Virus record (IMG/VR): IMGVR_UViG_3300049324_000053
Length of the DNA: 64,000 nt
Direction: 5' to 3' (one strand)
Origin: a virus
The translations under genes were made by a program, and so were the position numbers. Below the pieces are notes generated by a model. The model worked only from the letters and a program-made list of their open reading frames with translations, did no database searches and had not been told where the DNA came from. Each line of letters opens with the position of its first letter. The first letter of the stretch is position 1. Below are positions 460 through 61,718 of the stretch, in pieces.

Positions 460-653
460 CGCGGCGGTAATCCAAGGCCGGCGCGGACCTCTTCCGAGGT
501 GTAGACGCGGCCGGCGGCAATGTCTGCCCTCGCTTCCTGGATCTCGGCGATGATGCGAGGGTTCGTGGACATACGCCGGATCTCGCGGCGAGTGATGAAG
601 ATCCTGTTGGTTCGGACGTATTTCTCCCACCATTGGTCGAGCGCCGAGAGCAT
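456..653 (-). CDS. Phd/YefM/RelB-like antitoxin C-terminal (toxin-binding) fragment, 65 aa
   Basis: NPRIIAEIQEARADIAAGRVYTSEEVR motif; no Phd N-terminal domain; TGATG coupling at 651-655. Confidence 0.6.
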   Translation of the reverse strand: MLSALDQWWEKYVRTNRIFITRREIRRMSTNPRIIAEIQEARADIAAGRVYTSEEVRAGLGLPPR

Positions 654-985
654 CAGGAAGCAGCCCTGACGGCGTTGTGCTGGAAGACTACCGGCGCGTC
701 TTCTCCGAGTGTAGCGATCAGCACCTGGCGTACCCATTCGGAACGTGACATGTGGCAGTTTGCTGCTGCTGCATCCACTGCCTTGGTCAGTTCGCGTGAG
801 GCGCGAACCCGGATCGTTGGTGATGGTCCAGGTTCAGAAGGTGCCAGGGGTGGCCGGCCACCCCTGCGTTCGAATCGGGTCATCGTGTCTTCGACCAGTT
901 CGTTGATGTATTCGTCCGTCAGCGGCCGGCCATGGCTGTCGTAGACGATTTCGTCATCTGGGATGTCGCGACCGGGCTTCCTCAT
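653..985 (-). CDS. RHH/CopG antitoxin
   Basis: GGRPPL...SPTIRVRASRELTKAVDAAAANCHMSRSEWVRQVL; ATGA-coupled to the toxin. Confidence 0.8.
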   Translation of the reverse strand: MRKPGRDIPDDEIVYDSHGRPLTDEYINELVEDTMTRFERRGGRPPLAPSEPGPSPTIRVRASRELTKAVDAAAANCHMSRSEWVRQVLIATLGEDAPVVFQHNAVRAAS

Positions 986-1236
986 GGTTTTCTCCTTCGG
1001 AGGTTGTAGGGCATCACATGAATGACGATGATCTCTTCTGGGAGATCCAGTGCGATGACTTCCAACACGAGACCTCGGTCGTCTGGGCCGAACCACATCA
1101 GCCGACCATCGTGCCCGTCGGTTCCTGTTTCGAATGTTGGCTCCGTGGTGTTCATGACGTGCTGGGCGTGGGCTTTGCCGATCCGGTGTTTTCGTGCTGA
1201 GCGGTACCAGCTGACCGGGCGATGATCGTCGGTCAC
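982..1236 (-). CDS. Putative type II toxin (small RelE/BrnT-like actinobacterial SARKH family)
   Basis: SARKHRIGKAHA...GPDDRGLVLEVI...IIVIHVMP; lies upstream of the RHH gene; CACAAT box 6 nt before the GTG. Confidence 0.7.
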   Translation of the reverse strand: MTDDHRPVSWYRSARKHRIGKAHAQHVMNTTEPTFETGTDGHDGRLMWFGPDDRGLVLEVIALDLPEEIIVIHVMPYNLRRRKP

Positions 1237-5675: not shown

Positions 5676-8228
5676 GTGGCGTGGGGTCTTGCGTTCACGC
5701 TGCCCGGCGGCCGGTTTCGTACGTCGACATCCCTGCCCGGCTACGCGCTCGCCGGTTACGGTGTCGCCGCCTACGCCGACAGTGCGGTACCAGCGGGCAG
5801 CAGGACACTTAACGCGCAGGTCACCGCCACCGCCACCACCGCCGCGGCGCTGGGTTTCAGCTGGCAGCTGCAAGGACAGCCGGCCGCCGGCAGCGCGCAG
5901 ACCACCGGCCAGCTGGGGTTGCCGCGGCACCTGACGGCCACCGCCGCCGGCGCCGGCGTGGTCACCGCTACCGGTAGCCGCCGCGTTCAGGTGACCTGCA
6001 CGGCTGCCGGTCATGCGAGCGTCACGACCGGGGTGTTGCGCCGGGTGCAGACGCTGACCGGGTCGGGCGCCGGTCATGGTGCGCTCACCGGGACGGCGCG
6101 GGTTGCCCGCAGACTCACCGGCACCGCCGCGGCCGGCGCGGGAGTGACCGCTACGGGTGCGGTCGTGCGCCGCCTGACCGGCGCCGCCATCGGCGTCGCG
6201 TCCGGCGCCGCGACGGTCGCCCGTAACCGGGGTCTGAACGGGCATGCGGCCGGTGCCGGGGTGATGTTCGCCGGACGGTACTTGCAGGCGTATGTGCTGA
6301 CGTCCTCGTGTGCCGGCGCCGGCAGTGCCGGCGGCGGGCTGTTGCGGTTGCGGCGGACCACGGCGACCGCCGCGGGGTCGGCGAGTGTTGTCGCCGCTGT
6401 GCCCGTCGCGCGCAAGCTGACTGCCGTTCCGGCCGGTCATGTGGCGGTCGCCGCCACCGTCAAGATCGCGGGAACGTTCACCGGTAGTAGTGTCGCCGCC
6501 GCGATCTTGTCCGCGACTCTTGCCCGCGGCCGTCGTGTCACCGGTGCCGCTGCCGGTATCGCGACAGCGGCCGCGGTGCCACGCGGCACCATTCCGCTCG
6601 CCGCGGTCGTCGCCGGCGCCGGCGTGGTCACCGGCGCCATGACGGCCCGGCGGGTTCTCGTTGCCGTCGTGCACGGGGCGAGCAGTGTCGGCGGCGCTGT
6701 CCGCCGTCGTTATGCGCTGACCGGTTCGGGTGCCGGCACCGGCGACGGCGCCGGTGTGCTGCTGGCTGGGCTCGCCACGCTGACCGCTGCTAGTACCGGC
6801 AGCGCAGCGACGAGCGCGGTACTGCCCCGTGCCCGGCGTCTGACGGTCGTCAGCGCCGGGTGGACGGTGGCGACGGCGCAGGCGTTGCCCGACCGGGGTT
6901 TGACCGCCACCGTGACCGCGGCTGCCACCACGAGCAGTGTGCTGACCCAGCTGGTGCCCACGTTCGGGGTGACCCGGCTGCTGACCGTGACCAGCGATGG
7001 GGCTGCCACGGCCGGTGCGGACGCGGCGGTGGCGGTCCTTGCTGTTCTCGCCGGCGCCGGTGACGGTGCGGCCACCGCCGGTGCGGTGGCCACGTTTGCG
7101 GTGGCGTTCGCCGCCGGTGGTGCCGGTGTTGCGGCCGGTGGCGGTGACCTGGTCCGGCGGCGGGGTGTGACCGCTGCGAGCGTCGGTGCCAGCAGTGCCG
7201 AGGCTGGGGGGGTTGTCTTCTGGGCGTTGCGCGTGGACAGCGCCGGCGGTGCGGTGTCGGCCGGTTCGATGTCGGCCGGCCGGGGTTTGGCCGGCGCCGG
7301 TGACGGCAGGGGCGTCGTTGCTGCGAGCGTGACTCTGCTGCAGCTGCTGGCCGGGGTGACGGCGGGCGGCGCTGCGGTTGTTGTGAACGTCGACCGGGAT
7401 CGGGGGTTGGCCGCGTCGGCTACCGGCATCGGCGACGGCGCCGGTGTGCTGGGTCTGGTGCGGCTGCTGGCCGGCGCCGGCAACGGTGGCGCTGCTGTTG
7501 TTGTGCTGCTGGCAGGTGGTCGTGATGTCACGGCGGCCGCGGACGGCATGTCGAGCGCCGACGGGACGGTTGCTGTTGTCCGGCTGCTGGCCGCCGCCGC
7601 GGCCGGTGCTGCTACGTTCGCCGTCGAATTGGTGAGTGCCCGGGGCCTGGTGGGGGTGTTCACGGCCGGCGCGGTGGCCGGTGCGCAGCTGGCGGTGCTG
7701 CAGCTGCCCAGCGGGTCCGGTGCCGGCGCGGCTGTTGTGGTGGCAGCTGTTCGTGGTGACTGGAGTGTGACTGGCGCCGGTGGGGGGGCCGGCAGCGGGG
7801 CCGGGGTTCTGGTGCTGGGGCTGGCGCTGTTGAACGGCGCCGGCGCTGGTATCGGTCAGGTCGCTGCGGCGGCAATGGTGGCACTGATCGGCGTCGAAAG
7901 TTTCATCGAGGGGTGTTCAACGGTCGTTTGCTGGGTCGAACTGGCGGTGGTGTTCACCGGTGAGCCTGCCGCCGGGGTCGCTGCCGGCACCGCTGCGGTG
8001 ATCGGGGTGCTGGCGCTCGCGCCCACCGCGGTGGCGGTCACCTTTGCCGCTGTTCGTATTGCCGGGGTCACTGTTCTGGCGGCGCTGCTCGGCCTGGCGG
8101 TACCCGAACCGGTGCTGCCGCCGGCGCCATCCCCGGTGCCTCGTGCGGCGCCGCAGGTGGCAGCGAGCAGTGTCGGCGCTGGTGGGGTGGCGGACGTGGT
8201 GCATTTTCATGGCGGCCGTGCCCGGTGA
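5676..8228 (+). CDS. 850-aa Ala/Gly/Val-rich repetitive virion-region protein
   Basis: Long ORF with ~19-aa imperfect repeats such as RRLTGTAAAGAGVTA. Confidence 0.6.
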   Translation: MAWGLAFTLPGGRFRTSTSLPGYALAGYGVAAYADSAVPAGSRTLNAQVTATATTAAALGFSWQLQGQPAAGSAQTTGQLGLPRHLTATAAGAGVVTATGSRRVQVTCTAAGHASVTTGVLRRVQTLTGSGAGHGALTGTARVARRLTGTAAAGAGVTATGAVVRRLTGAAIGVASGAATVARNRGLNGHAAGAGVMFAGRYLQAYVLTSSCAGAGSAGGGLLRLRRTTATAAGSASVVAAVPVARKLTAVPAGHVAVAATVKIAGTFTGSSVAAAILSATLARGRRVTGAAAGIATAAAVPRGTIPLAAVVAGAGVVTGAMTARRVLVAVVHGASSVGGAVRRRYALTGSGAGTGDGAGVLLAGLATLTAASTGSAATSAVLPRARRLTVVSAGWTVATAQALPDRGLTATVTAAATTSSVLTQLVPTFGVTRLLTVTSDGAATAGADAAVAVLAVLAGAGDGAATAGAVATFAVAFAAGGAGVAAGGGDLVRRRGVTAASVGASSAEAGGVVFWALRVDSAGGAVSAGSMSAGRGLAGAGDGRGVVAASVTLLQLLAGVTAGGAAVVVNVDRDRGLAASATGIGDGAGVLGLVRLLAGAGNGGAAVVVLLAGGRDVTAAADGMSSADGTVAVVRLLAAAAAGAATFAVELVSARGLVGVFTAGAVAGAQLAVLQLPSGSGAGAAVVVAAVRGDWSVTGAGGGAGSGAGVLVLGLALLNGAGAGIGQVAAAAMVALIGVESFIEGCSTVVCWVELAVVFTGEPAAGVAAGTAAVIGVLALAPTAVAVTFAAVRIAGVTVLAALLGLAVPEPVLPPAPSPVPRAAPQVAASSVGAGGVADVVHFHGGRAR

Positions 8229-8237
8229 GCGGGTCTT

Positions 8238-8405
8238 TCACTGCCGGTTCGCGGCACGCTCCCACGGATCGTCGACCGGATCGTCGATGCCCGCGTCGAT
8301 GTCGGCTCGCCACTCGCGCCAGTCCTGTGGCGGCAGCGTCGCAAGGAACGCGTTCACGTCCGCGCCGGTCACCGGTGGCTTGCCGGGCGGGTCGTTCGTC
8401 TGCAC
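8238..8405 (-). CDS. 55-aa orphan VapB/Phd-like antitoxin C-terminal fragment (below ORF-track cutoff)
   Basis: Hand translation MQTNDPPGKPPVTGADVNAFLATLPPQDWREWRADIDAGIDDPVDDPWERAANRQ; paralog at 50973-51140; TAGGCT-N7-GTG. Confidence 0.65.
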   Translation of the reverse strand: MQTNDPPGKPPVTGADVNAFLATLPPQDWREWRADIDAGIDDPVDDPWERAANRQ

Positions 8406-32791: not shown

Positions 32792-32938
32792 ATGGACGAC
32801 GACGAGCCCGGCGATCACACGGCAGACAGCATCGAGAAGTTGTACTGGCGTCTTGCTGACCGGGCGTTGCTCGATCGGCCGGATCTCCAGGAAAGTCTTG
32901 CCCAGATGCGCCGTGGCGAAGGTGAGATTGTTGCTTAG
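32792..32938 (+). CDS. 48-aa YefM/Phd-like antitoxin C-terminal fragment (below ORF-track cutoff)
   Basis: Hand translation MDDDEPGDHTADSIEKLYWRLADRALLDRPDLQESLAQMRRGEGEIVA; TAGGCT-N6-ATG. Confidence 0.5.
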   Translation: MDDDEPGDHTADSIEKLYWRLADRALLDRPDLQESLAQMRRGEGEIVA

Positions 32939-33231
32939 CGCGTGTCGAAGATTTCGTGTGTTCCGATGCGACGCCAGATGACATGCACCTGTCCTGGAAG
33001 CACTTCCGGCCCGTATTCGAACGTGGCGCGCCCGTTCGGTGCCCATGTCATCTCGAACACGCCGGAGACATGCACTTTCTTCACTCGCAACCCCGGGGGG
33101 AAGGGTTCGCCTTTGGTCAGCGCCGGGACAAATAGCTCCTGAATCTTTTCGAGGAACCGGCGTTTCTGTTCGGCGGTCAGCTGCTGGTGGTCAGCAGTGA
33201 ATCGGGCTGCGCGCTCAAACGTCGGCGGCAT
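32935..33231 (-). CDS. RelE/ParE-superfamily toxin
   Basis: LRVKKV...VFEMTWAPNGRATF...WRRIGTHEIF. Confidence 0.8.
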   Translation of the reverse strand: MPPTFERAARFTADHQQLTAEQKRRFLEKIQELFVPALTKGEPFPPGLRVKKVHVSGVFEMTWAPNGRATFEYGPEVLPGQVHVIWRRIGTHEIFDTR

Positions 33232-33523
33232 CGACGGCCAGCGACTCGGTGAACTCTTCGACGCTCATCGGCCCGGACGTGTATCCAGCGGCGATGTCGC
33301 AGCTGGCTTCGTGTTCTCCGGCCTGCCATGCCGGCGTCCAGAACCATGCCTGATCCGCCGGGATCACACGCGCCGGGATCAGCCGGACACCGTCATCGTC
33401 CTGCAGGAAGATCACCTCGTCGCCTTCGGTGAGGTGCAGCGCTTCGCGAATCGGTGCCGGCAAGGTCAGCTGACCGCGAGCGCGCATCGTGCTGTGCGGC
33501 GTGAGGTGGGAGGTGGTGTCCAA
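33215..33523 (-). CDS. AbrB/MazE-family antitoxin
   Basis: RGQLTLPAPIREALHL.EGD.V; DQAWFWTPAWQAGE.EA..DIAAG. Confidence 0.88.
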   Translation of the reverse strand: MDTTSHLTPHSTMRARGQLTLPAPIREALHLTEGDEVIFLQDDDGVRLIPARVIPADQAWFWTPAWQAGEHEASCDIAAGYTSGPMSVEEFTESLAVDAADV

Positions 33524-43193: not shown

Positions 43194-46184
43194 GTGGACA
43201 CATTCGACCCGGTGGCGTACCTCGCGGGCAAGGGCTGGCACGGACGCGCCACCGGCGGTCACGAGGTCGTCTACCCGTGCTTTTTCGACTGCGGCGAAGA
43301 TCAGAGCAGCCGCAAACGCAAGTTGTACCTGAACTCCACCACCGGCATGTACGACTGCAAGGTCTGCGGCACACACGGTGGGCCGTACCTGCTGGCCAAG
43401 CATTTCGGTGACATTCTCACCGACAACCAGCTGCACACCGACCAGCAGCTCGCCGGCGATCCGTTCGCCCGTCGCCGGCTGCTGGACGCTGCGACCACGG
43501 CCGCTGCGGACATGCTGCCCGCCAACCCGGCCATCCTCGATTACCTCACCGGCACCACCATGACCCCCTACGGACTCGGCCGCGGTCTCACCCCGGAAAC
43601 GGTCGTTGAACGCCGGTTGGGGTTCGCCGGTGGCAAACACTGGTCGCTCACCGCCGCCTTGGACCTGACCGGTGTCGACGCCGCCACCTTGACCAGCACC
43701 GGTCTGGCTCGTTCCGACGGGCGCGACACCTTCAGCACTCACATCACCATCCCGTACCTGGCCCGCGGGCACACCGAACAGATCCGCGGCCGCAACATCG
43801 GTGCGACCGGCAGCAAATACCTCTCGGCCGCCGGCGCCGGCGTTGCGCTCTACAACCGGGACAGTCTCGACGACGCCGACGAGGTGCTCATCACCGAAGG
43901 CGAGTTCGACGCGATGATCGCCCGGCAGTCGTTCGCTGCCAGCGGCGACGAGAAACTCGCCGCCTTGGCCGTCGTCGCCCTGCCCGGCACCAGCAGCTGG
44001 CCGACCGACCTGCCCGGCTACCTGACCGGGGTGCGGCGCATCTGGCTCGGCCTGGACGCCGACGAACCCGGCCGCAAAGCCACCGCCAAGCTCGCCGACA
44101 CGCTCGGCCGCCGCGCCCGCCCCCTCGCGCTGCCCGAAATGCATCAGGACTGGACCGACTGGATCGCCCGCGGCGGCGCCACCTGTGAACAGATCGCCGG
44201 CCTGTTCGCTGCCGCCAGCGGCCGTCGCGTTTTCAGCATGGCCGATGCTGGACGTAGCTGGCGCGCGCAGCGCACCCTGTCCGGCGGGTTGAAGACCGGG
44301 TACACCGGATTGGACTCCACCATTCTTCCTGGCCTGCTTCCCGGACAAGTTGCCGTGCTCTACTCGAAGACGGGTACAGGCAAACAGAACGATGTTGATG
44401 AGGTCGTCCCGACCCCAACCGGATGGCGCCGGTTCGGCGACTTGCAGCCCGGCGACCAGGTGTTCGGGCAAAACGGTAGCCCCACCACCGTCACCGGCGT
44501 CTGGCCCCAGATCGACCGGCGCGCCTGGCGGGTCACCTTCTCCGATCGAACAAGCCTCGTCGCCGGCCCCGACCACCTGTGGCAGGTCTCCTATCGTGGT
44601 GGACGGCGCCGGGAGTGGATCCCCTGCGTCATGTCCACCACCGAGATCCTTGCCGCCGGCCTGCACTACAGGCGCGAGTATCGCTGGATCATCCCGATGC
44701 CCGGCCCAGTCCAGTTCCCGAAGCAGCAACTACTTATCGCGCCCTACACGTTCGGCGCGCTGCTCGCGAACGGCTACCTGACCGGCACGGGCGCCGTGCT
44801 CACCACCCCTGATCCGCACGTCGTCGCCCGCTGCCGTAGCGAGCACATCCTGCACAAGCACAAGACGCCCGACGGTGCTTGCCGCCGGTACGGGGTGCTC
44901 GGCGTCCTGCCCGACCTGCGGCGTCTCGGCCTCACCGTCGGCAGCTACGACAAGTTCATCCCCGAGATGTACCTGACTGCCAGTGTTGAGCAGCGTATCG
45001 CCCTGCTGCAGGGGCTGATGGACGGCGACGGCAGTACTCGCGGCGCCGGACGTGCCTCGGTGCGGTATCACACCATGTCGCGGCGGCTGGCCGCCGATGT
45101 GCAGCGTCTGGTCTGGTCGCTCGGTGGCACGGCGATGGACAACTGGATGGACCGTGGCCCCAAGGGTGTCGAGGGAATGTTGTCGATCATGATGCCGTCC
45201 GAGATCGAGCCTTTCTACACCCCCCGCAAGGTGCGTGGTTGTCCGCCCAAGTACAGCGAGCCGCGCCGTGCCATCGTCAGCATCGAACCGGTCGAAGACC
45301 GTGACATGCAATGCATCAGCGTCGACGCTCCCGATGCGCTTTATCAGATCGGCGCCGCGCATATCGTCACCCACAACACGATCTTGCTCTGTAATATGTC
45401 CTACAATATGCGCCGGCATAATATTCTGTTCATCTCACTGGAGATGACCCGTGAGGAAATCTACGAACGACTGCGCCGCATCTATCTGTTCTGGAATCCC
45501 AACGCCACCGATGCAGAAGTCGATGCGGGTCTCGAACACATTTACATCTGCGACGAGAACCGCCTCGATGAGAATGCCTGGGCCGACGTCCTCGAAGAAT
45601 ATCAGACCGAGACCGGAACCACTCCTGACCTTGTCATGGTCGATTATCTCGGTTATTACGCTCGCGGTCACGCCGGCGCCAACCGGTACGAGCAAGTCTC
45701 CAACGCCATCATGAGCCTCAAAGCCGCCGCCAAAGGCAACGGCAACCCCGACAGCCGGTTCGCACTCATCACCCCCAGCCAGGTCAATCGTGGCGCCCGC
45801 GCCGGCGCTCCCGTCGAACTCGACGACGCCCGCGACTCCGGCGGTGTGGAGGAAACCGCCGACTTCGTGCTGAGCCTCTACCGTCCCGAGGACGCCCTGA
45901 CCGCGTCCGATCCTACCGCCGGACGTACCGGCGGCCGCCCCGCACCGCCCGTTGCAGCCGTCGCCACCGGCGCCCTACGTCTCGGTGTTCTCAAAAGCCG
46001 GCACGGTGGCGTCGGACGTGAATTCGGTTTGCAGATGGATCTGCTCACCTTGGCCATCGTCGAGATGAACACCGCCGCCGCACATCGTGCCGCCGATCAT
46101 AACAACTTGCACCGCCGTGGCCACGACTGGAATTACCTGCGGATGACCGAAACCCAACCCCGCCAACTGCGGATCGTCACCTAA
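43194..46184 (+). CDS. Fused primase (Zn finger plus TOPRIM) and DnaB-like helicase, intein-containing
   Basis: C..C/CKVC; TEGEFDAM; LDADEPG; TGTGK/T; SLEM; VDYL; SQVNR; LKSRHG. Confidence 0.92.
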   Translation: MDTFDPVAYLAGKGWHGRATGGHEVVYPCFFDCGEDQSSRKRKLYLNSTTGMYDCKVCGTHGGPYLLAKHFGDILTDNQLHTDQQLAGDPFARRRLLDAATTAAADMLPANPAILDYLTGTTMTPYGLGRGLTPETVVERRLGFAGGKHWSLTAALDLTGVDAATLTSTGLARSDGRDTFSTHITIPYLARGHTEQIRGRNIGATGSKYLSAAGAGVALYNRDSLDDADEVLITEGEFDAMIARQSFAASGDEKLAALAVVALPGTSSWPTDLPGYLTGVRRIWLGLDADEPGRKATAKLADTLGRRARPLALPEMHQDWTDWIARGGATCEQIAGLFAAASGRRVFSMADAGRSWRAQRTLSGGLKTGYTGLDSTILPGLLPGQVAVLYSKTGTGKQNDVDEVVPTPTGWRRFGDLQPGDQVFGQNGSPTTVTGVWPQIDRRAWRVTFSDRTSLVAGPDHLWQVSYRGGRRREWIPCVMSTTEILAAGLHYRREYRWIIPMPGPVQFPKQQLLIAPYTFGALLANGYLTGTGAVLTTPDPHVVARCRSEHILHKHKTPDGACRRYGVLGVLPDLRRLGLTVGSYDKFIPEMYLTASVEQRIALLQGLMDGDGSTRGAGRASVRYHTMSRRLAADVQRLVWSLGGTAMDNWMDRGPKGVEGMLSIMMPSEIEPFYTPRKVRGCPPKYSEPRRAIVSIEPVEDRDMQCISVDAPDALYQIGAAHIVTHNTILLCNMSYNMRRHNILFISLEMTREEIYERLRRIYLFWNPNATDAEVDAGLEHIYICDENRLDENAWADVLEEYQTETGTTPDLVMVDYLGYYARGHAGANRYEQVSNAIMSLKAAAKGNGNPDSRFALITPSQVNRGARAGAPVELDDARDSGGVEETADFVLSLYRPEDALTASDPTAGRTGGRPAPPVAAVATGALRLGVLKSRHGGVGREFGLQMDLLTLAIVEMNTAAAHRAADHNNLHRRGHDWNYLRMTETQPRQLRIVT
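44385..45377 (+). mobile_element. Class 3-type intein (331 aa) with LAGLIDADG homing endonuclease, inserted in Walker A
   Basis: GK/QNDV...TPTGW; DHLW; LLANG and GLMDGDG; MQCISV; VTHN/T. Confidence 0.88.
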
Positions 46185-48867: not shown

Positions 48868-49785
48868 ATGTCATCGAACGACACCGATGCCGAACTCGAC
48901 GAGATCCTCGAAGAGTTGAAGATTCGCAAGATCGACCTGGTTGCGCAGGGCGGTGCCGACGGTGACGACAACGTCGACGGTGACGACGACCTGCCGTTCA
49001 CCATTGACTGCTGGCGCGACGGCCTGCGCATCGCCGTGCTGATCTTCGGGCAGGCCATACCGGACATCGTCCTGAAAGCCGCCCACATGGCGATCATCGG
49101 GTTCAACGCCGACCGGGTCGTGGTGTGCAATGAGGGATACATCCAGAACCTCATCACCGACCCCACAGCACCCCCCTACGGCATCAACCCGGCCACCGGC
49201 CGGGAATGGGAGCACGGCGAACTGGGTGAAGTCTTCACCAGTGGCCAACATCCCGGCGTCGTCGTGGAAACCTTGAACGTCCTCGACGTACGGCGTGACG
49301 GCACGGGATGGATGTGCGGTGCCCCCTACGAACGCACCGCACGCCAGGTGCGCTGGCTTCCCAAACTCACCATGATCGAGATCGACGGGATCGACGGTGG
49401 CCGCGTCCCCGACGCACTGCACCACGCGTTCGCCCAACCGTGCATGCTCGACGAGGCCCGCCCTGCGATCGACGAACTCGGCCTCGACCTGGCCTACGCA
49501 CAGACCGCCATGGACATCACCACCGCGAAGCTGCTCATGGCGCGCATCCCGTACATTGCCGTGATGCTTGCCACCCGCGACCCACAGAGCCACGCGATGA
49601 TCGGCAATGCGTTTCTCGACAGCACTCTGCAGGACTTCCGCCAGGGCGTGCTGCTCGCCAAAGAAAAGGCCGGCGCAAGCGCCGAACGTCTGGTCCTCGC
49701 ACGCGCCATGCTCTACGGCTCCGGCCTGAACAATGAATGGGACATCATCGAGGTCGACGCCGACGCCGATCCGTCAGGAAGCTGA
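48868..49785 (+). CDS. Hypothetical protein
   Basis: AAGGAGG SD; 305-aa ORF. Confidence 0.65.
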   Translation: MSSNDTDAELDEILEELKIRKIDLVAQGGADGDDNVDGDDDLPFTIDCWRDGLRIAVLIFGQAIPDIVLKAAHMAIIGFNADRVVVCNEGYIQNLITDPTAPPYGINPATGREWEHGELGEVFTSGQHPGVVVETLNVLDVRRDGTGWMCGAPYERTARQVRWLPKLTMIEIDGIDGGRVPDALHHAFAQPCMLDEARPAIDELGLDLAYAQTAMDITTAKLLMARIPYIAVMLATRDPQSHAMIGNAFLDSTLQDFRQGVLLAKEKAGASAERLVLARAMLYGSGLNNEWDIIEVDADADPSGS

Positions 49786-49799
49786 CGGTAGGCGGGCGC

Positions 49800-50078
49800 T
49801 CATTTTTGACTTCGGGGCAGGACGGTCGGGCCGTATCGTTCGCGGGCGTCCTGCTTGCTCATGCCGAGGACGGCACCGATCAGCCCCCAGCGGCAGCCGT
49901 TCACACGGGCCTGGGTTACCACGGCGGTCAGGTGCTCATCGTCGGCATCGTTCTCGACGGCGGCGATCAGCGCGCGTAGGTCGGTGGCATCTGTCATAAC
50001 GACGGTCTGCGGGTCGAGCTGGTCCAGCCAGGCTTCTGCGGCGAGCACCTCGGCGCGTAGCTGTTCGTCGTCCATCAT
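49800..50078 (-). CDS. Orphan HTH antitoxin-like protein
   Basis: WLD.LDP....DATDLR...V..AR..G..W..IG.VLGMSKQ.A.ERYG. Confidence 0.6.
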   Translation of the reverse strand: MMDDEQLRAEVLAAEAWLDQLDPQTVVMTDATDLRALIAAVENDADDEHLTAVVTQARVNGCRWGLIGAVLGMSKQDARERYGPTVLPRSQK

Positions 50079-50575
50079 CGAACCTCCCGGACGGCCGCGT
50101 CGATCCGTGCCTGTGCTTCGGCCCTCTTCGGACGAATCGCCAGGCCGTCTTCGGTGTGGAAGACCTCGAAGTCGCTGCGGTACTTCTCACGCCAATTCGG
50201 GTCGTAGGCGGTCAGGACCGACTCGGCGTCGGTGCGTTCACTGGCCAGTCGAAACACGAGTTGCGGTCCTTCGGCTGCGTAAAGATCCAACCCGGTGATG
50301 GGGTAGCCGAAGGCGATGGGGGTCTCAAGCCACGAGGCCACGTCCTGGATGTGGTGATCCTGCGTAAGCAGTACGCAGGTGGCAAGCAGGGCGGCCACGG
50401 ACGTTCGGTTTTCCTCAGACGACGTCCCACCGTTCCGCCACTTTTGGACGGCGGGTACGTTCACGCCCACGAGGCGGGCGACGTCGCGCCAGGCAAAACC
50501 GTACTCAGCAACCTGTTCCAGCAATGAGGGCATGTCCAGTCGGGCCAGGTCGGCGGTCGTGGGTTCCAGCATCAT
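50075..50575 (-). CDS. Orphan Xre-MbcA/ParS-like antitoxin
   Basis: GFAWRDVARLVGVNVPAVQKWRNG; DVASWLETPI..G.P.T.LDL. Confidence 0.6.
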   Translation of the reverse strand: MMLEPTTADLARLDMPSLLEQVAEYGFAWRDVARLVGVNVPAVQKWRNGGTSSEENRTSVAALLATCVLLTQDHHIQDVASWLETPIAFGYPITGLDLYAAEGPQLVFRLASERTDAESVLTAYDPNWREKYRSDFEVFHTEDGLAIRPKRAEAQARIDAAVREVR

Positions 50576-50976
50576 GAATGCTCCTTCGTGGCACGCCCCC
50601 AGGGGTCGTTGACCGGATCGTCGATCCGTGCCTGCGCCTCGGCGAGTTCGTCCTTGGTGAAGACGCCGTGCCCCTGCTGGTAGCGCGCCAGCTCGGCACC
50701 CAGCAGCTCATGCCGCCGCTGCGGGTCGTCCCCCTCCTGCTTCAGGCGTTCGAGCACCCAGCCGCGGGCCAGCTGGCTCATGGACGTTTTACGCGCCTGC
50801 GCCGCCGTCTCCAGGTCGAACAGCTGGTCGCCCGGCAACCGGATGGACAAGACGAACGCCAGGGCCTGCGGCGGCAGGTTCGGATCGGCGCGCACCCAGC
50901 CGCCGTCCGGTTCGCTGTCACCGAGCGCGTCGGCTTGGGCTTTGAGTGCGGCGAACTCTTCACGGCTCAACGTCAA
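50572..50976 (-). CDS. Chimeric RHH/CopG antitoxin-like protein
   Basis: VLSIRLP...L...A......SQLARGWV.ERL plus YQQ.HGVFT.DEL.EA plus IDDPV.DPW tail. Confidence 0.65.
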   Translation of the reverse strand: MTLSREEFAALKAQADALGDSEPDGGWVRADPNLPPQALAFVLSIRLPGDQLFDLETAAQARKTSMSQLARGWVLERLKQEGDDPQRRHELLGAELARYQQGHGVFTKDELAEAQARIDDPVNDPWGRATKEHS

Positions 50977-51140
50977 GACTGCTCCTTACTGCGGTTCGCG
51001 GCACGCTCCCACGGGTCGTCGACCGGGTCGTCGATACCGTGATCGACGTCCCTGCGTAGTTCGCGCCAGTCTTGTGGCGGCAAGGTGGCGAGGAACGCGT
51101 TCCATTCACCTATCGTGACCTGCGGTTTTGGGGTTTCCAT
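50973..51140 (-). CDS. 55-aa orphan VapB/Phd-like antitoxin C-terminal fragment
   Basis: Hand translation METPKPQVTIGEWNAFLATLPPQDWRELRRDVDHGIDDPVDDPWERAANRSKEQS; TAGCCT-N8-ATG; TTGA-coupled. Confidence 0.65.
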   Translation of the reverse strand: METPKPQVTIGEWNAFLATLPPQDWRELRRDVDHGIDDPVDDPWERAANRSKEQS

Positions 51141-51174
51141 AGGTGGCCAGGCTACTGCAGCCGGGTCGTGGGGG

Positions 51175-51226
51175 AAACAAAAAAAGGCCCGGTGGCCGGG
51201 CTCTGTGCGAGCCGGCCACCGGGCCT
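51175..51226 (-). terminator. Rho-independent terminator
   Basis: AGGCCCGGTGGCCGG..CTC/GAG.CCGGCCACCGGGCCT stem with a T7 tail on the minus strand. Confidence 0.85.
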
Positions 51227-51252: not shown

Positions 51253-52350
51253 TCAAGCCTTCACGGAACGGCCGAGCTGCGCCAGCCCGGTCATCGCCAG
51301 TTCCAGCGCCGCGCCGGCCCGATCCTGGGACACCTGCAGGATCTCGCTGTACATGTCGGCCTGATCCAGCAGCCGCTGATACTGCTCGGTGAGCGCCGCG
51401 TACAGCTTCGCCGGGATCCGCTCCCGGCCGCCGAGCTTGGCGATCTCGTCGAGCAGCCCCTGGATCTCCTTTTCGACCTCGTCCTCGAACGCTGTCATCA
51501 GCATCTGACGCTGTTCGGGCAGGTCCAGCAGCGGCAGCTGATGCATGCTGCAGCCGGAGATACGGGTCAGCACCGACTGCAGCGCGTCGATCACAGCCTG
51601 ATGGACGGTGTGCACGTAGTACACCCCGGACGCGGGCTTCACGCTGATCGCCTGCATGCCCGCACGCAGATAGTTGCGCACCACCGCACGTACCGCCTGG
51701 CCCTGCAGGAAGCTGCGCAGCTGCGTGTACCGGACGTCGAACGCGTCGAGTGCGGCTTGCACCTGCTCACGGTCGACGGCACCCATCGGCACGGGAGCGA
51801 CGGCGACGGGCTTGTTGTCCGGGCCGACCGCTTCGAGCAGTGAGTGCATCTCGGTGCGCACATGCTGACGGGTCAGGTCGCGGCGGCCGGTCATCGGGTC
51901 GTGCGCGCCGCGGAACAGCCGCAAGGTGGCGACGCGGGCGGTGGACACGGTCGCCGAGGAGCCGGTGTCGACCAGGTCGCGCATCAGGTACCGGATGATG
52001 ACCTCGTCGTCGGCGTGCACCTCGACGACACGCAGCCGGGCGTTGCCCGCGGGGTGCGGGTAGGCCGGCCGGCGGGCCAGTTCGCCGCTGGCCGCGCGAA
52101 AGCAGTCCATCGGCTGCGGCAGGCGCGGCAGGTACTTGGCGTCGAGGCCGGCGGCGGCGAACCACCCGGTCAGGTCGGCGTGCGACACGAGACCGCCGTG
52201 TTCGGGGATCGAGAACCAGGTGATCGTGCCGAGGATCATTTCGGGGTGCGCGCGCAGCATGTCGAGGCCGGAGCGGGTGTAGTCGGCCAGCTGTGCCTCG
52301 GGCTGTGCAGGGTTTGTGCTGCTGGACGGTCGTTCCTCGGTGACGGTCAT
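51253..52350 (-). CDS. DUF6744-like protein
   Basis: LG.ITWFSI...P...DCFRAA; SGVYYV; typical AAA/vWA neighbour. Confidence 0.6.
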   Translation of the reverse strand: MTVTEERPSSSTNPAQPEAQLADYTRSGLDMLRAHPEMILGTITWFSIPEHGGLVSHADLTGWFAAAGLDAKYLPRLPQPMDCFRAASGELARRPAYPHPAGNARLRVVEVHADDEVIIRYLMRDLVDTGSSATVSTARVATLRLFRGAHDPMTGRRDLTRQHVRTEMHSLLEAVGPDNKPVAVAPVPMGAVDREQVQAALDAFDVRYTQLRSFLQGQAVRAVVRNYLRAGMQAISVKPASGVYYVHTVHQAVIDALQSVLTRISGCSMHQLPLLDLPEQRQMLMTAFEDEVEKEIQGLLDEIAKLGGRERIPAKLYAALTEQYQRLLDQADMYSEILQVSQDRAGAALELAMTGLAQLGRSVKA

Positions 52351-52578
52351 GCGGTCCTCCTGTTGGCGCCTCGGGTGAAATCTACCTCTGAACGGTCGTT
52401 CATCGCCAGAGATACTGTGAATCGTTCGGGTGAAATATGCGGGCTACTTGCACAGAGCTTGCAGGGCAACTGCATGGCAGACGCAGGATTGCTGCGGAAC
52501 TTCAGTCGAGAAACTGCCGCCGAACGACACGAGTCACGCGGGGCGGCCGCAGATGCCATGGCGGCATCCTGTGTGTTG

Positions 52579-58058: not shown

Positions 58059-58223
58059 GATGACGGCTCCCTTCCTGATGGGCGTTCAGATTAGCGCCTC
58101 TGATGTCAGAGTACGCGAGCATGAGTCGTGACGCAGCGTCAACCGCTACGCCATCCGAGTGAAACTGGGGCTGTCAACGAGCGTTGAGAAGCCCATCCGT
58201 GCCGATGAGCCGGTGAACGACCG

Positions 58224-61078: not shown

Positions 61079-61237
61079 GTCGTTCCTTCTCTCGTGTTGT
61101 CGGTGGCCGGTGGTAGGCCGAAAGCGAGCACCGGGGCCGGTGAACGGCCGTTGAGGCAACGTCGTGTGCGTTCATGATATCGCATATTAGCGGGGAGTGC
61201 AGTAGCGAGTGCAGTAGCGTGACCGTGCTGTGACCGA

Positions 61238-61275
61238 ACGCAGGTCCGCTCAACGAGCGTTGAGCGGACCTGCGT
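61238..61275. repeat. Perfect 18-bp-arm palindrome containing the operator motif
   Basis: ACGCAGGTCCGCTCAACG-AG-CGTTGAGCGGACCTGCGT. Confidence 0.85.
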
Positions 61276-61289
61276 GACGTCCGGGTGGT

Positions 61290-61718
61290 TCAACGACCGT
61301 TAGCAGGCCGTCTGCGTGGGGCGTACCAGCGCACCGGCAGACACGACTTGCGCGCCCGCTCGATCATCACGAGCAGCACCTGTCCGGCGCCCTCGTCCAT
61401 GGGCGCCCGTTCGTCCAGCGCGTACGCCGCCGACCGCAGCACCCCGAGCACGCCATGCCAGTCACGGGCGTCCAGCTCATCGACCGGCACCGTAGCCATC
61501 GTGCGGACCAACTCGACCAGCGCCTCACCGGCCGCCGTCTGCGTCGGCGTATGCGTGCGAGTCGCCGCCGCCGTCGGGCTCATGTAGGCGAACGACTGCC
61601 AGTAGTGCCAGCCGTCCCCGTCCTCGTTCTGTGCCCCCTGCCAGTCGATGTTGACCGGCTTCGCGTCGAGCGACACGACAGACAGATCGTGCAGCGGGAT
61701 GCGGGTGTCGTTGTTCAT
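61290..61718 (-). CDS. Hypothetical protein
   Basis: GGAGG SD. Confidence 0.5.
   Translation of the reverse strand: MNNDTRIPLHDLSVVSLDAKPVNIDWQGAQNEDGDGWHYWQSFAYMSPTAAATRTHTPTQTAAGEALVELVRTMATVPVDELDARDWHGVLGVLRSAAYALDERAPMDEGAGQVLLVMIERARKSCLPVRWYAPRRRPANGR

Follow-up and report, generated by a model that had tools for sequence, protein, structure and literature searches.

A coupled operon of four small phage genes, three of them resembling type II antitoxins, without a recognizable toxin gene

The Dmd protein of bacteriophage T4 counters RnlA and LsoA, and it is an example of a phage-borne antitoxin homolog that has no toxin of its own. Two similar cases have been published. AdfN is an orphan antitoxin homolog from a phage that neutralizes the toxin-antitoxin defense DarTG1 (PMC11825919), and the DarG2-like protein of the chimalliviruses is another phage orphan antitoxin (PMC13309987). 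Among bacterial toxin-antitoxin systems, one of the closest to the genes that we discuss is RelS-RelI from Mycobacterium tuberculosis (Rv2663-Rv2664), whose structure (PDB 9SDC) dates from 2026; in the first helix (alpha1) of the antitoxin RelI, D8 and D12 are joined by salt bridges to catalytic residues of RelS (PMC13284704). Here we analyze four small genes (open reading frames ORF1 to ORF4) in a stretch of 64,000 nucleotides from the virus record IMGVR_UViG_3300049324_000053 of IMG/VR. We will refer to this entire stretch as the window.

Three of the four proteins (ORF2, ORF3, and ORF4) appear to be antitoxin homologs that are carried by a phage without their toxins. In this they are like AdfN, the DarG2-like protein, and Dmd, each of which is a toxin-less homolog of a bacterial antitoxin in a phage. 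Unlike the locus that we studied, each of the proven cases cited above consists of one gene, and two of the proteins (AdfN and the DarG2-like protein) are enzymes. The present locus encodes three putative antitoxins that are homologs of DNA-binding type II antitoxins, come from differing families, and are translationally coupled in one operon. So although phage orphan antitoxins have already been published, a coupled array from several families is different from the single-gene cases that we have cited.

Our tentative view is that the proteins of this array are putative antitoxins that act in trans, as counter-defense or anti-addiction proteins. The array would be an accessory operon of four small proteins that are expressed from one leaderless-type start and by translational coupling. 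ORF2 (ribbon-helix-helix or RHH, BrnA-like), ORF3 (with a fold like Xre/MbcA/NatR), and ORF4 (RelI-like) would be toxin-less homologs from three unrelated families of type II antitoxins. Their targets would be RNases of the RelS or BrnT type and the effector of a three-gene cassette that we describe below, and these might be encoded by the host, by co-resident integrative elements, or by prophages. If those toxins were neutralized, the phage would be spared toxin-based abortive infection or addiction. The DNA-binding domains may also hold the matching promoters shut.

We favor this view for four reasons. First, three antitoxin-type proteins have been split from their partners and yet are intact, coupled, and conserved. 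Second, ORF3 is a copy of a gene from a cellular cassette, and that gene is otherwise absent from phage records. Third, ORF4 retains the motif that contacts the toxin. Fourth, orphan antitoxins are a proven strategy of phages (PMC11825919).

The operon and its antitoxin-like genes

All four genes are on the minus strand: ORF1 (51140..50973, 55 amino acids, ATG start), ORF2 (50976..50572, 134 amino acids, TTG start), ORF3 (50575..50075, 166 amino acids, ATG start), and ORF4 (50078..49800, 92 amino acids, ATG start). An initial annotation of this DNA had proposed a four-gene operon, joined throughout by 4-nucleotide overlaps of stop and start codons, behind a strong terminator and with one leaderless promoter. 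The overlaps can be read directly from the DNA: TTGA for ORF1/2, ATGA for ORF2/3, and ATGA for ORF3/4. The terminator is also as described. It is an intrinsic terminator for the upstream DUF6744 gene (51253..52350) and lies at 51177..51226 on the minus strand, with an 18-bp stem (51226..51185) and then the U-run UUUUUUUGUUU. Its minimum free energy is -42.8 kcal/mol, which corresponds to z = -5.75 against shuffled sequences, and the stem is also inverted repeat I4 (15/15).

The promoter is a candidate only. ORF1 has no Shine-Dalgarno (SD) site at its start, and TAGCCT (51154..51149, minus strand), which could be a -10 box of the form TANNNT, is 8 nucleotides ahead of its ATG. However, a scan with the sigma-70 consensus found no promoter match for the operon, so a leaderless-type start for ORF1 from this box is plausible but no firmer. 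The other three genes have strong SD sites (AAGGAG for ORF2, GAAGGAG for ORF3, and GGGAGG for ORF4), each lying within the final codons of the gene that comes before it. At the other end of the operon, the stop codon of ORF4 is 15 nucleotides from the stop codon of a convergent gene (48868..49785). The operon has no space left for a further gene.

The initial annotation also claimed that there was no toxin and no space for one. For the operon this is correct: neither the family libraries nor a sequence search of the PDB gave a toxin match for ORF1 to ORF4, and a six-frame search (tblastn) of the window with BrnT/RelS-like toxins and with the partners of the ORF3 family as queries found none of them; no RelS/BrnT-like sequence is present in the operon or beside it. 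We also found no RES-domain toxin in the window. It is not correct for the phage, which has toxin-antitoxin pairs of its own.

One short palindrome, AACGNNCGTT, is enriched in the window, with 11 sites against 1.2 expected, and 0 of 100 shuffles reach 11. The sites include 52391-52400, 61143-61301, and 58176-58185, and one copy is upstream of the DUF6744 gene. There is none in the promoter region of the four-gene operon.

ORF4 belongs to the RelI family. Residues 15-85 align with residues 8-79 of RelI (PDB 9SDC chain A, E = 2.6e-10), and a full HMMER scan identified 314 cluster representatives at E <= 1e-3. (A word-based search for homologs of ORF4 gave no match.) The 71 aligned residues include the acidic/Trp motif in alpha1 that plugs the active site of RelS (E15, W17, and D19 of ORF4 align with D8, W10, and D12 of RelI) as well as the C-terminal helix-turn-helix (HTH), and in length ORF4 agrees with the short group of RelI proteins. 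Unlike the M. tuberculosis gene, ORF4 is in a phage accessory operon and is not preceded by relS: the gene directly upstream is ORF3, rather than any RelS/BrnT-like gene. Also, the recognition-helix motif of the HTH is KQAA in RelI but KQDA in ORF4. Some relatives of ORF4 in phages do follow a toxin-like gene. In the prophage prophi104-2, the relative gp32 ("antitoxin") comes after gp31 ("BrnT-like toxin"), and in Gordonia phage Yeezy, the relative gp34 comes after gp35, an unannotated protein of 78 amino acids with a weak match to BrnT in Pfam (E = 0.046). ORF4 would be the first phage-borne, toxin-less relative of the RelI-type antitoxins that is available to test.

While examining RelI homologs, we saw that in contig L012 a close homolog (P0131) lies downstream of a stub (2180-2455) with the sequence ...SARKHGVSDADIQHA, after which its frame ends. 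It resembles the decayed remains of a relS-like toxin gene, with the antitoxin downstream still intact.

The AlphaFold2 model of ORF3 is confident, with a predicted local distance difference test score (pLDDT) of 93. Its fold matches MbcA (Z = 9.8, root mean square deviation 3.4 Å, 103 residues aligned), NatR (Z = 8.8), and VPA0769 (Z = 8.3). These are the only structural matches that span both domains of ORF3, and all three are antitoxins for RES-type toxins. The closest known proteins are the Xre-RES antitoxins MbcA, NatR, ParS, and VPA0769 (PDB 6FKG, 8QNL, 8GUG, and 6GW6). Unlike those proteins, ORF3 bears an additional beta-hairpin and a C-terminal helix that is borrowed, there is no recognizable RES toxin either in the window or in the cellular cassette, and the cellular relatives of ORF3 are encoded in the middle of a three-gene cassette that also includes a TIGR04255 protein. 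Furthermore, the Z scores of the antitoxins are modestly above those of plain HTH proteins (6-7.6), and in Pfam, ORF3 has no match to Xre_MbcA_ParS_C, just weak matches to HTH_23, HTH_Tnp_1, and HTH_3 at E <= 1. Because of the modest margin in Z and the lack of a match at the sequence level, ORF3 is best described, from its model, as having the fold of an Xre-RES antitoxin without being demonstrably a member of the family.

These structural matches bear on a rival explanation, which is that the HTH and RHH proteins of the operon have been domesticated as regulators and are purely transcription factors that do not bind toxins. They might control phage gene timing or immunity or repress host or prophage promoters, as anti-CRISPR-associated (Aca) proteins and orphan HigA-like regulators do. 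In agreement with this idea, the structural neighbors of ORF3 include Aca1, Aca2, and controller C-proteins (Z of 6-7), the HTH is retained in ORF3 and ORF4, and ORF2 has an RHH-like segment. Also, RelI relatives with additional fused domains are usually encoded by genes that stand alone (PMC13284704). On the other hand, every match that covers both domains of ORF3 is a toxin-bound antitoxin, and ORF4 has kept the alpha1 motif that plugs the toxin. It would be odd to have four regulators in one coupled operon without any obvious cargo gene, and the palindrome that is enriched in the window is missing from the operon's own promoter region. Overall, we doubt that the proteins are purely regulators, although this idea is the main rival to our view.

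The cellular relatives of ORF3 tell us more about where it came from. The homologs (n = 168) are mostly about 216 amino acids long, with about 65 extra residues at the N-terminus, and their C-terminus is at the ...IRPK of ORF3. ORF3 is 54-64% identical to the cellular proteins and aligns to residues 81-216 or so only, and it has 15 extra residues that are borrowed from an ORF2-type tail. From these alignments, ORF3 is clearly copied from a cassette gene of actinobacteria, with the N-terminus shortened. We scanned one actinobacterial genome per species and found that the cellular homolog of ORF3 lies between a TIGR04255 protein and a protein of about 240 amino acids, with both adjacent in 68 of 80 loci. 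The carriers include Streptomyces, Micrococcus, and metagenomic integrative elements, and the cassette is often on integrative conjugative elements with RepSA, FtsK/SpoIIIE, and integrase (loci L002-L007 and L016-L095). Neither of the partners of ORF3 is present in the window, and none of 50,697 phage records has a member of the ORF3 family.

The 240-amino-acid protein has no match in Pfam or NCBIfam, and its AlphaFold2 model (pLDDT 56) is too low in confidence for a fold search; we found no mention of TIGR04255 in papers. The genes for the TIGR04255 protein, the 216-amino-acid Xre/MbcA-fold protein, and the 240-amino-acid protein are a candidate for an uncharacterized tripartite toxin-antitoxin or defense system. 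A few short members of the ORF3 family also occur without a toxin. For example, there is a toxin-less member of 177 amino acids in a metagenome-assembled genome from the Acidimicrobiia (L081, 722-3965). It adjoins a gene for an ATPase-like protein of 479 amino acids and a DUF4065/SocA (Panacea)-like gene, both judged by eye.

The N-terminal part of ORF2 is conserved. It is followed by a segment that resembles an RHH (residues 43-83) and by a C-terminal tail that is a mosaic. Its matches to RHH families are weak and below the curated cut-offs (DUF6290, E = 0.043; RelB antitoxin, E = 0.064; phrog_10190, E = 1.4e-5), but they are consistent, as every one falls on residues 43-83. A profile of ORF2 had no match in the PDB, and comparing it by hhalign to the other RHH antitoxin in the window gave E = 0.061 only. 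Homologs of ORF2 are few and come from related phage-like contigs. One of these contigs, L010, has the AAA, MoxR, and vWA genes of the window at 47-60% identity. Its homolog of ORF2 (62% identity over 81 residues) gives stronger RHH matches that are also below the curated cut-offs (DUF6290, E = 3e-4; CopG_antitoxin, E = 0.007; RelB, E = 2e-4).

The context of ORF2 in L010 is informative. There, the ORF2 homolog has an ATGA overlap with a preceding gene for 124 amino acids, which is grouped with the DUF497/BrnT toxins (Atlas feature score 0.90; structure TM 0.68/0.91, where TM is the template modeling score), and a RelI-like gene is directly downstream. Like BrnA, members of the ORF2 family are conserved in their N-terminal part, with an RHH-like segment next, and in L010 the gene overlaps by ATGA with the BrnT/DUF497-like gene directly before it. 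The differences from BrnT-BrnA are that ORF2 directly follows a BrnT-like gene in the relative L010 only, with ORF1 in the toxin's place in the window; that its RHH matches are all under curated cut-offs; and that it has a C-terminal extension of about 50 residues that is absent from BrnA. ORF2 is best read as a homolog of BrnA-like RHH antitoxins whose toxin slot is now occupied by ORF1.

L010 also contains a full toxin-antitoxin pair (7648-8213), in which an antitoxin of 77 amino acids is paired with a toxin of the PemK/MazF type (PF02452, E = 1.4e-14), about 2.5 kb downstream of the string of BrnT-like, RHH, and RelI-like genes.

These results support most of the initial classification of the proteins. 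ORF4 had been called an HTH antitoxin, and ORF2 an RHH chimera, with RHH matches that are weak and a tail that is demonstrably a mosaic; ORF3 had been called Xre-MbcA/ParS-like, which is true of its fold only. The operon had also been described as made only of antitoxin-like genes. That stands for ORF2, ORF3, and ORF4 but not for ORF1, which belongs to a family without any match.

ORF1 and the assembly of the array

ORF1 is acidic, is not hydrophobic, and has a conserved tail (IDDPVDDPWERAAN). It had been taken for a fragment of a VapB/Phd-like antitoxin. We found no match to VapB or Phd-YefM at E <= 1 in Pfam or NCBIfam or, by sequence or profile, in the PDB, and ORF1 has no match of any kind in Pfam, NCBIfam, PHROGs, PADLOC, PDB, or the phage and plasmid records. 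Its neighbors in the Atlas score at most 0.87, and DUF2281 and AF2212-like proteins, at 0.76-0.78, are leads only. Nor is ORF1 a fragment. The window contains a solitary paralog, also of 55 amino acids (8238..8405, minus strand), with a GTG start and TAGGCT 7 nucleotides before it. The two proteins are 79% identical and the genes are 73% identical, with a ratio of nonsynonymous to synonymous substitution rates (dN/dS) of about 0.11. In another sample, a gene for 55 amino acids precedes a homolog of ORF2 (P0128). Because of the paralog with its low dN/dS and the gene before P0128, ORF1 is, by these comparisons, a conserved, real gene under purifying selection.

The paralog is flanked by plus-strand genes, beside the block of tail genes, and converges on the end of a frame of 850 amino acids. 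Across the 42 nucleotides that encode the IDDPVDDPWERAAN tail (8238-8290 and 50988-51035), ORF1 and its paralog are 95% identical, as compared to 73% for the whole genes. This could be due either to conservation at synonymous sites or to gene conversion.

Could ORF1 be a hidden toxin? Under this explanation, ORF1 would be a small toxin or inhibitor of growth of a new kind, with ORF2 as its antitoxin, in the gene order of BrnT-BrnA. ORF1 does fill the slot of the BrnT-like toxin of L010, ORF2 does bear a copy of the tail of ORF1, and ORF1 has no match among known families. However, the paralog stands alone, with no antitoxin-like neighbor. Also, in being acidic, non-hydrophobic, and 55 residues long, ORF1 differs from the known toxins of types I and II, which makes a role as a toxin unlikely, and no library has a toxin match for ORF1. 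We consider this explanation very improbable.

We also asked if ORF1 could be a remnant of the BrnT-like gene of L010, and we rejected this, as the DNA homology between the two loci begins only 9 nucleotides before the start of ORF2. At that junction, the window reads TTGA in place of the ATGA of L010.

The ends of the genes record how the array was built. A tail repeat (family D1, 88% identity over 41 nucleotides, minus strand) is found at the 3' end of ORF1 (50995..51035) and again at the 3' end of ORF2 (50585..50625). A second repeat, which encodes AEAQARID (family D3, 92% identity over 25 nucleotides, minus strand), is found in the tail of ORF2 (50619..50643) and in the tail of ORF3 (50098..50122), and these two copies bracket the inserted ORF3 segment. 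The ORF2 homolog P0128 ends in ...AQAQIDAAARDVR, which in the window is the tail that ORF3 bears, while P0127 has the same tail as ORF2 of the window. Comparing the content of the array among relatives, which in practice means L010 at the level of DNA and one other relative as a gene layout only, we found BrnT-like, RHH, and RelI-like genes in L010, with the BrnT-like toxin at the position where the window has ORF1, whereas the P0128 locus keeps the 55-amino-acid gene and ORF2.

That the array was assembled by recombination through nested gene tails is, on this evidence, well supported. In the simplest reading, ORF2 would originally have had a ...IDAAVREVR tail with ORF4 directly next, as in L010. 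A tail of the ORF1 type, with its SD site, and the core of ORF3 would then have recombined into the AEAQARID site. Because the SD site of each following gene is located in these tails, a gene that moves with its ribosome-binding site would bring along a piece of its former neighbor. The initial annotation had argued for deliberate assembly rather than decay. This is overstated: the nested repeats and the relatives show ordinary recombination, with one junction reused for ORF3.

Kirchberger et al. reportedly described in 2017 arrays of orphan immunity genes at type VI secretion system (T6SS) loci of Vibrio cholerae that arose by sequential displacement. In those arrays, as here, nested 3' gene ends mark successive recombination, and protective genes are found without their toxic partners. 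Unlike those arrays, the one in the window is phage borne, its genes are toxin-antitoxin rather than T6SS parts, and it records only two or three events.

Such a history raises the question of whether the array is debris, that is, leftovers after toxins were lost or displaced during the turnover of toxin-antitoxin modules, with little or no present function. There are several hints of this. In a related contig, the place of ORF1 is taken by a BrnT-like toxin, the nested tails log successive recombination, ORF3 is shortened relative to its family, ORF2 starts with TTG where its relative in L010 has ATG, and the RelI homolog in L012 is preceded by a decayed relS-like stub. But the window has no frameshifts and no stop-riddled remnants at this locus: none of the four frames is interrupted, the SD sites are strong, and the overlaps are exact. 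Also, ORF2 is 87% and 77% identical to homologs from other samples that have the same gene order, and ORF1 is under purifying selection. Close relatives retain the order of ORF1, ORF2, and the next gene, with identical 4-nucleotide overlaps. Given the four open frames, the strong SD sites, the overlaps that the relatives have kept, and the dN/dS of ORF1, the genes look maintained rather than decaying. We think it improbable that the array is debris.

Proposed antitoxins acting in trans: arguments against and implications

Several observations weigh against our preferred reading of the array as trans-acting putative antitoxins. ORF2, ORF3, and ORF4 all keep DNA-binding domains and so could be plain regulators. 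For ORF2, the sequence matches behind the RHH assignment are all below threshold. The ORF3 family has no demonstrated antitoxin among its members, its partner of about 240 amino acids has no known toxin domain, and ORF3 lacks the N-terminal region of the family. Toxin-less homologs of RelI and of ORF3 are found in bacterial genomes too, not just in this phage. Finally, ORF4 could act on the phage's own RelS-like toxin (982..1236), which is 49 kb away. More broadly, because the phage has toxin-antitoxin pairs of its own, the array could be there for the toxins of the phage itself or could result, as a by-product, from the turnover of toxin-antitoxin modules.

A more ambitious version of the trans-acting reading is that the array is a battery with many targets, in which one leaderless transcript is directed against at least three families of toxins from the host's mobile elements, including the effector of the cassette. 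The conserved gene tail with its SD site would then be a docking site, and recombination there would add new specificities. We consider this version unlikely. A related idea is that the acidic tail of ORF1 (IDDPVDDPW), which has been copied onto ORF2, might be a peptide that plugs toxins.

If the trans-acting reading is correct, then phages stack homologs of classical DNA-binding type II antitoxins in one co-expressed unit, and this array displays a simple recombination route by which members are added. It would also flag a widespread three-gene cassette of the Actinomycetota as a likely toxin-based system.

Toxin-antitoxin pairs and other genes of the phage

The phage's own toxin-antitoxin genes are on the minus strand at two places in the window. 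At the first, a RelS/BrnT-like protein of 84 amino acids (982..1236) has its own start of the TANNNT type and a SARKH motif. It aligns end to end with the toxin chain of 9SDC, including the SARKH, but at E = 0.11 only. Its gene overlaps by 4 nucleotides with the gene for an antitoxin of 110 amino acids with a C-terminal RHH (653..985). At the second, a MazE/AbrB-type antitoxin (33215..33523; PF04014, E = 4.8e-10) is followed by a gene for 98 amino acids (32935..33231) whose product had no match in the libraries and is RelE/ParE-like by eye. Both pairs (653..1236 and 32935..33523) are apparently complete, and as judged from its gene content, the phage is generally rich in toxin-antitoxin genes.

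We found no close relatives of the window in INPHARED, PLSDB, or IMG/VR, and the DNA of the operon had no match in the phage and plasmid records. More specifically, searches with the DUF6744 protein, ORF3, or an alignment of MoxR did not identify a related locus in IMG/VR; the alignment of ORF2 identified nothing in the metagenome contigs of the JGI, where MoxR gave a single match at 26% identity; and a search of genome contigs with MoxR gave no related locus. For these proteins, the protein database records a contig of 145 kb.

The window has a GC content of about 67% and looks like part of a novel high-GC genome of a siphophage-like virus. It includes a block of AAA, bpMoxR, vWA, and DUF6744 genes. 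A frame of 2731 amino acids has the size of a tape-measure protein, with no match in PHROGs, and is followed by more large frames, one of which matches PHROGs for minor tail proteins. Another large protein (43194-46184, plus strand, 996 amino acids) is a primase and DnaB-like helicase. Its residues 390-735 or so match PHROGs that are labeled as the large subunit of terminase, probably because of a shared intein-like insertion. Lastly, the frame on which the paralog of ORF1 converges (5676-8228, plus strand, 850 amino acids) has a GC content of 74% and is made of repeats that are rich in Ala, Gly, Thr, and Val, with a recurring ...RRLTG.AAG.G, so it may encode a fiber-like structural protein.

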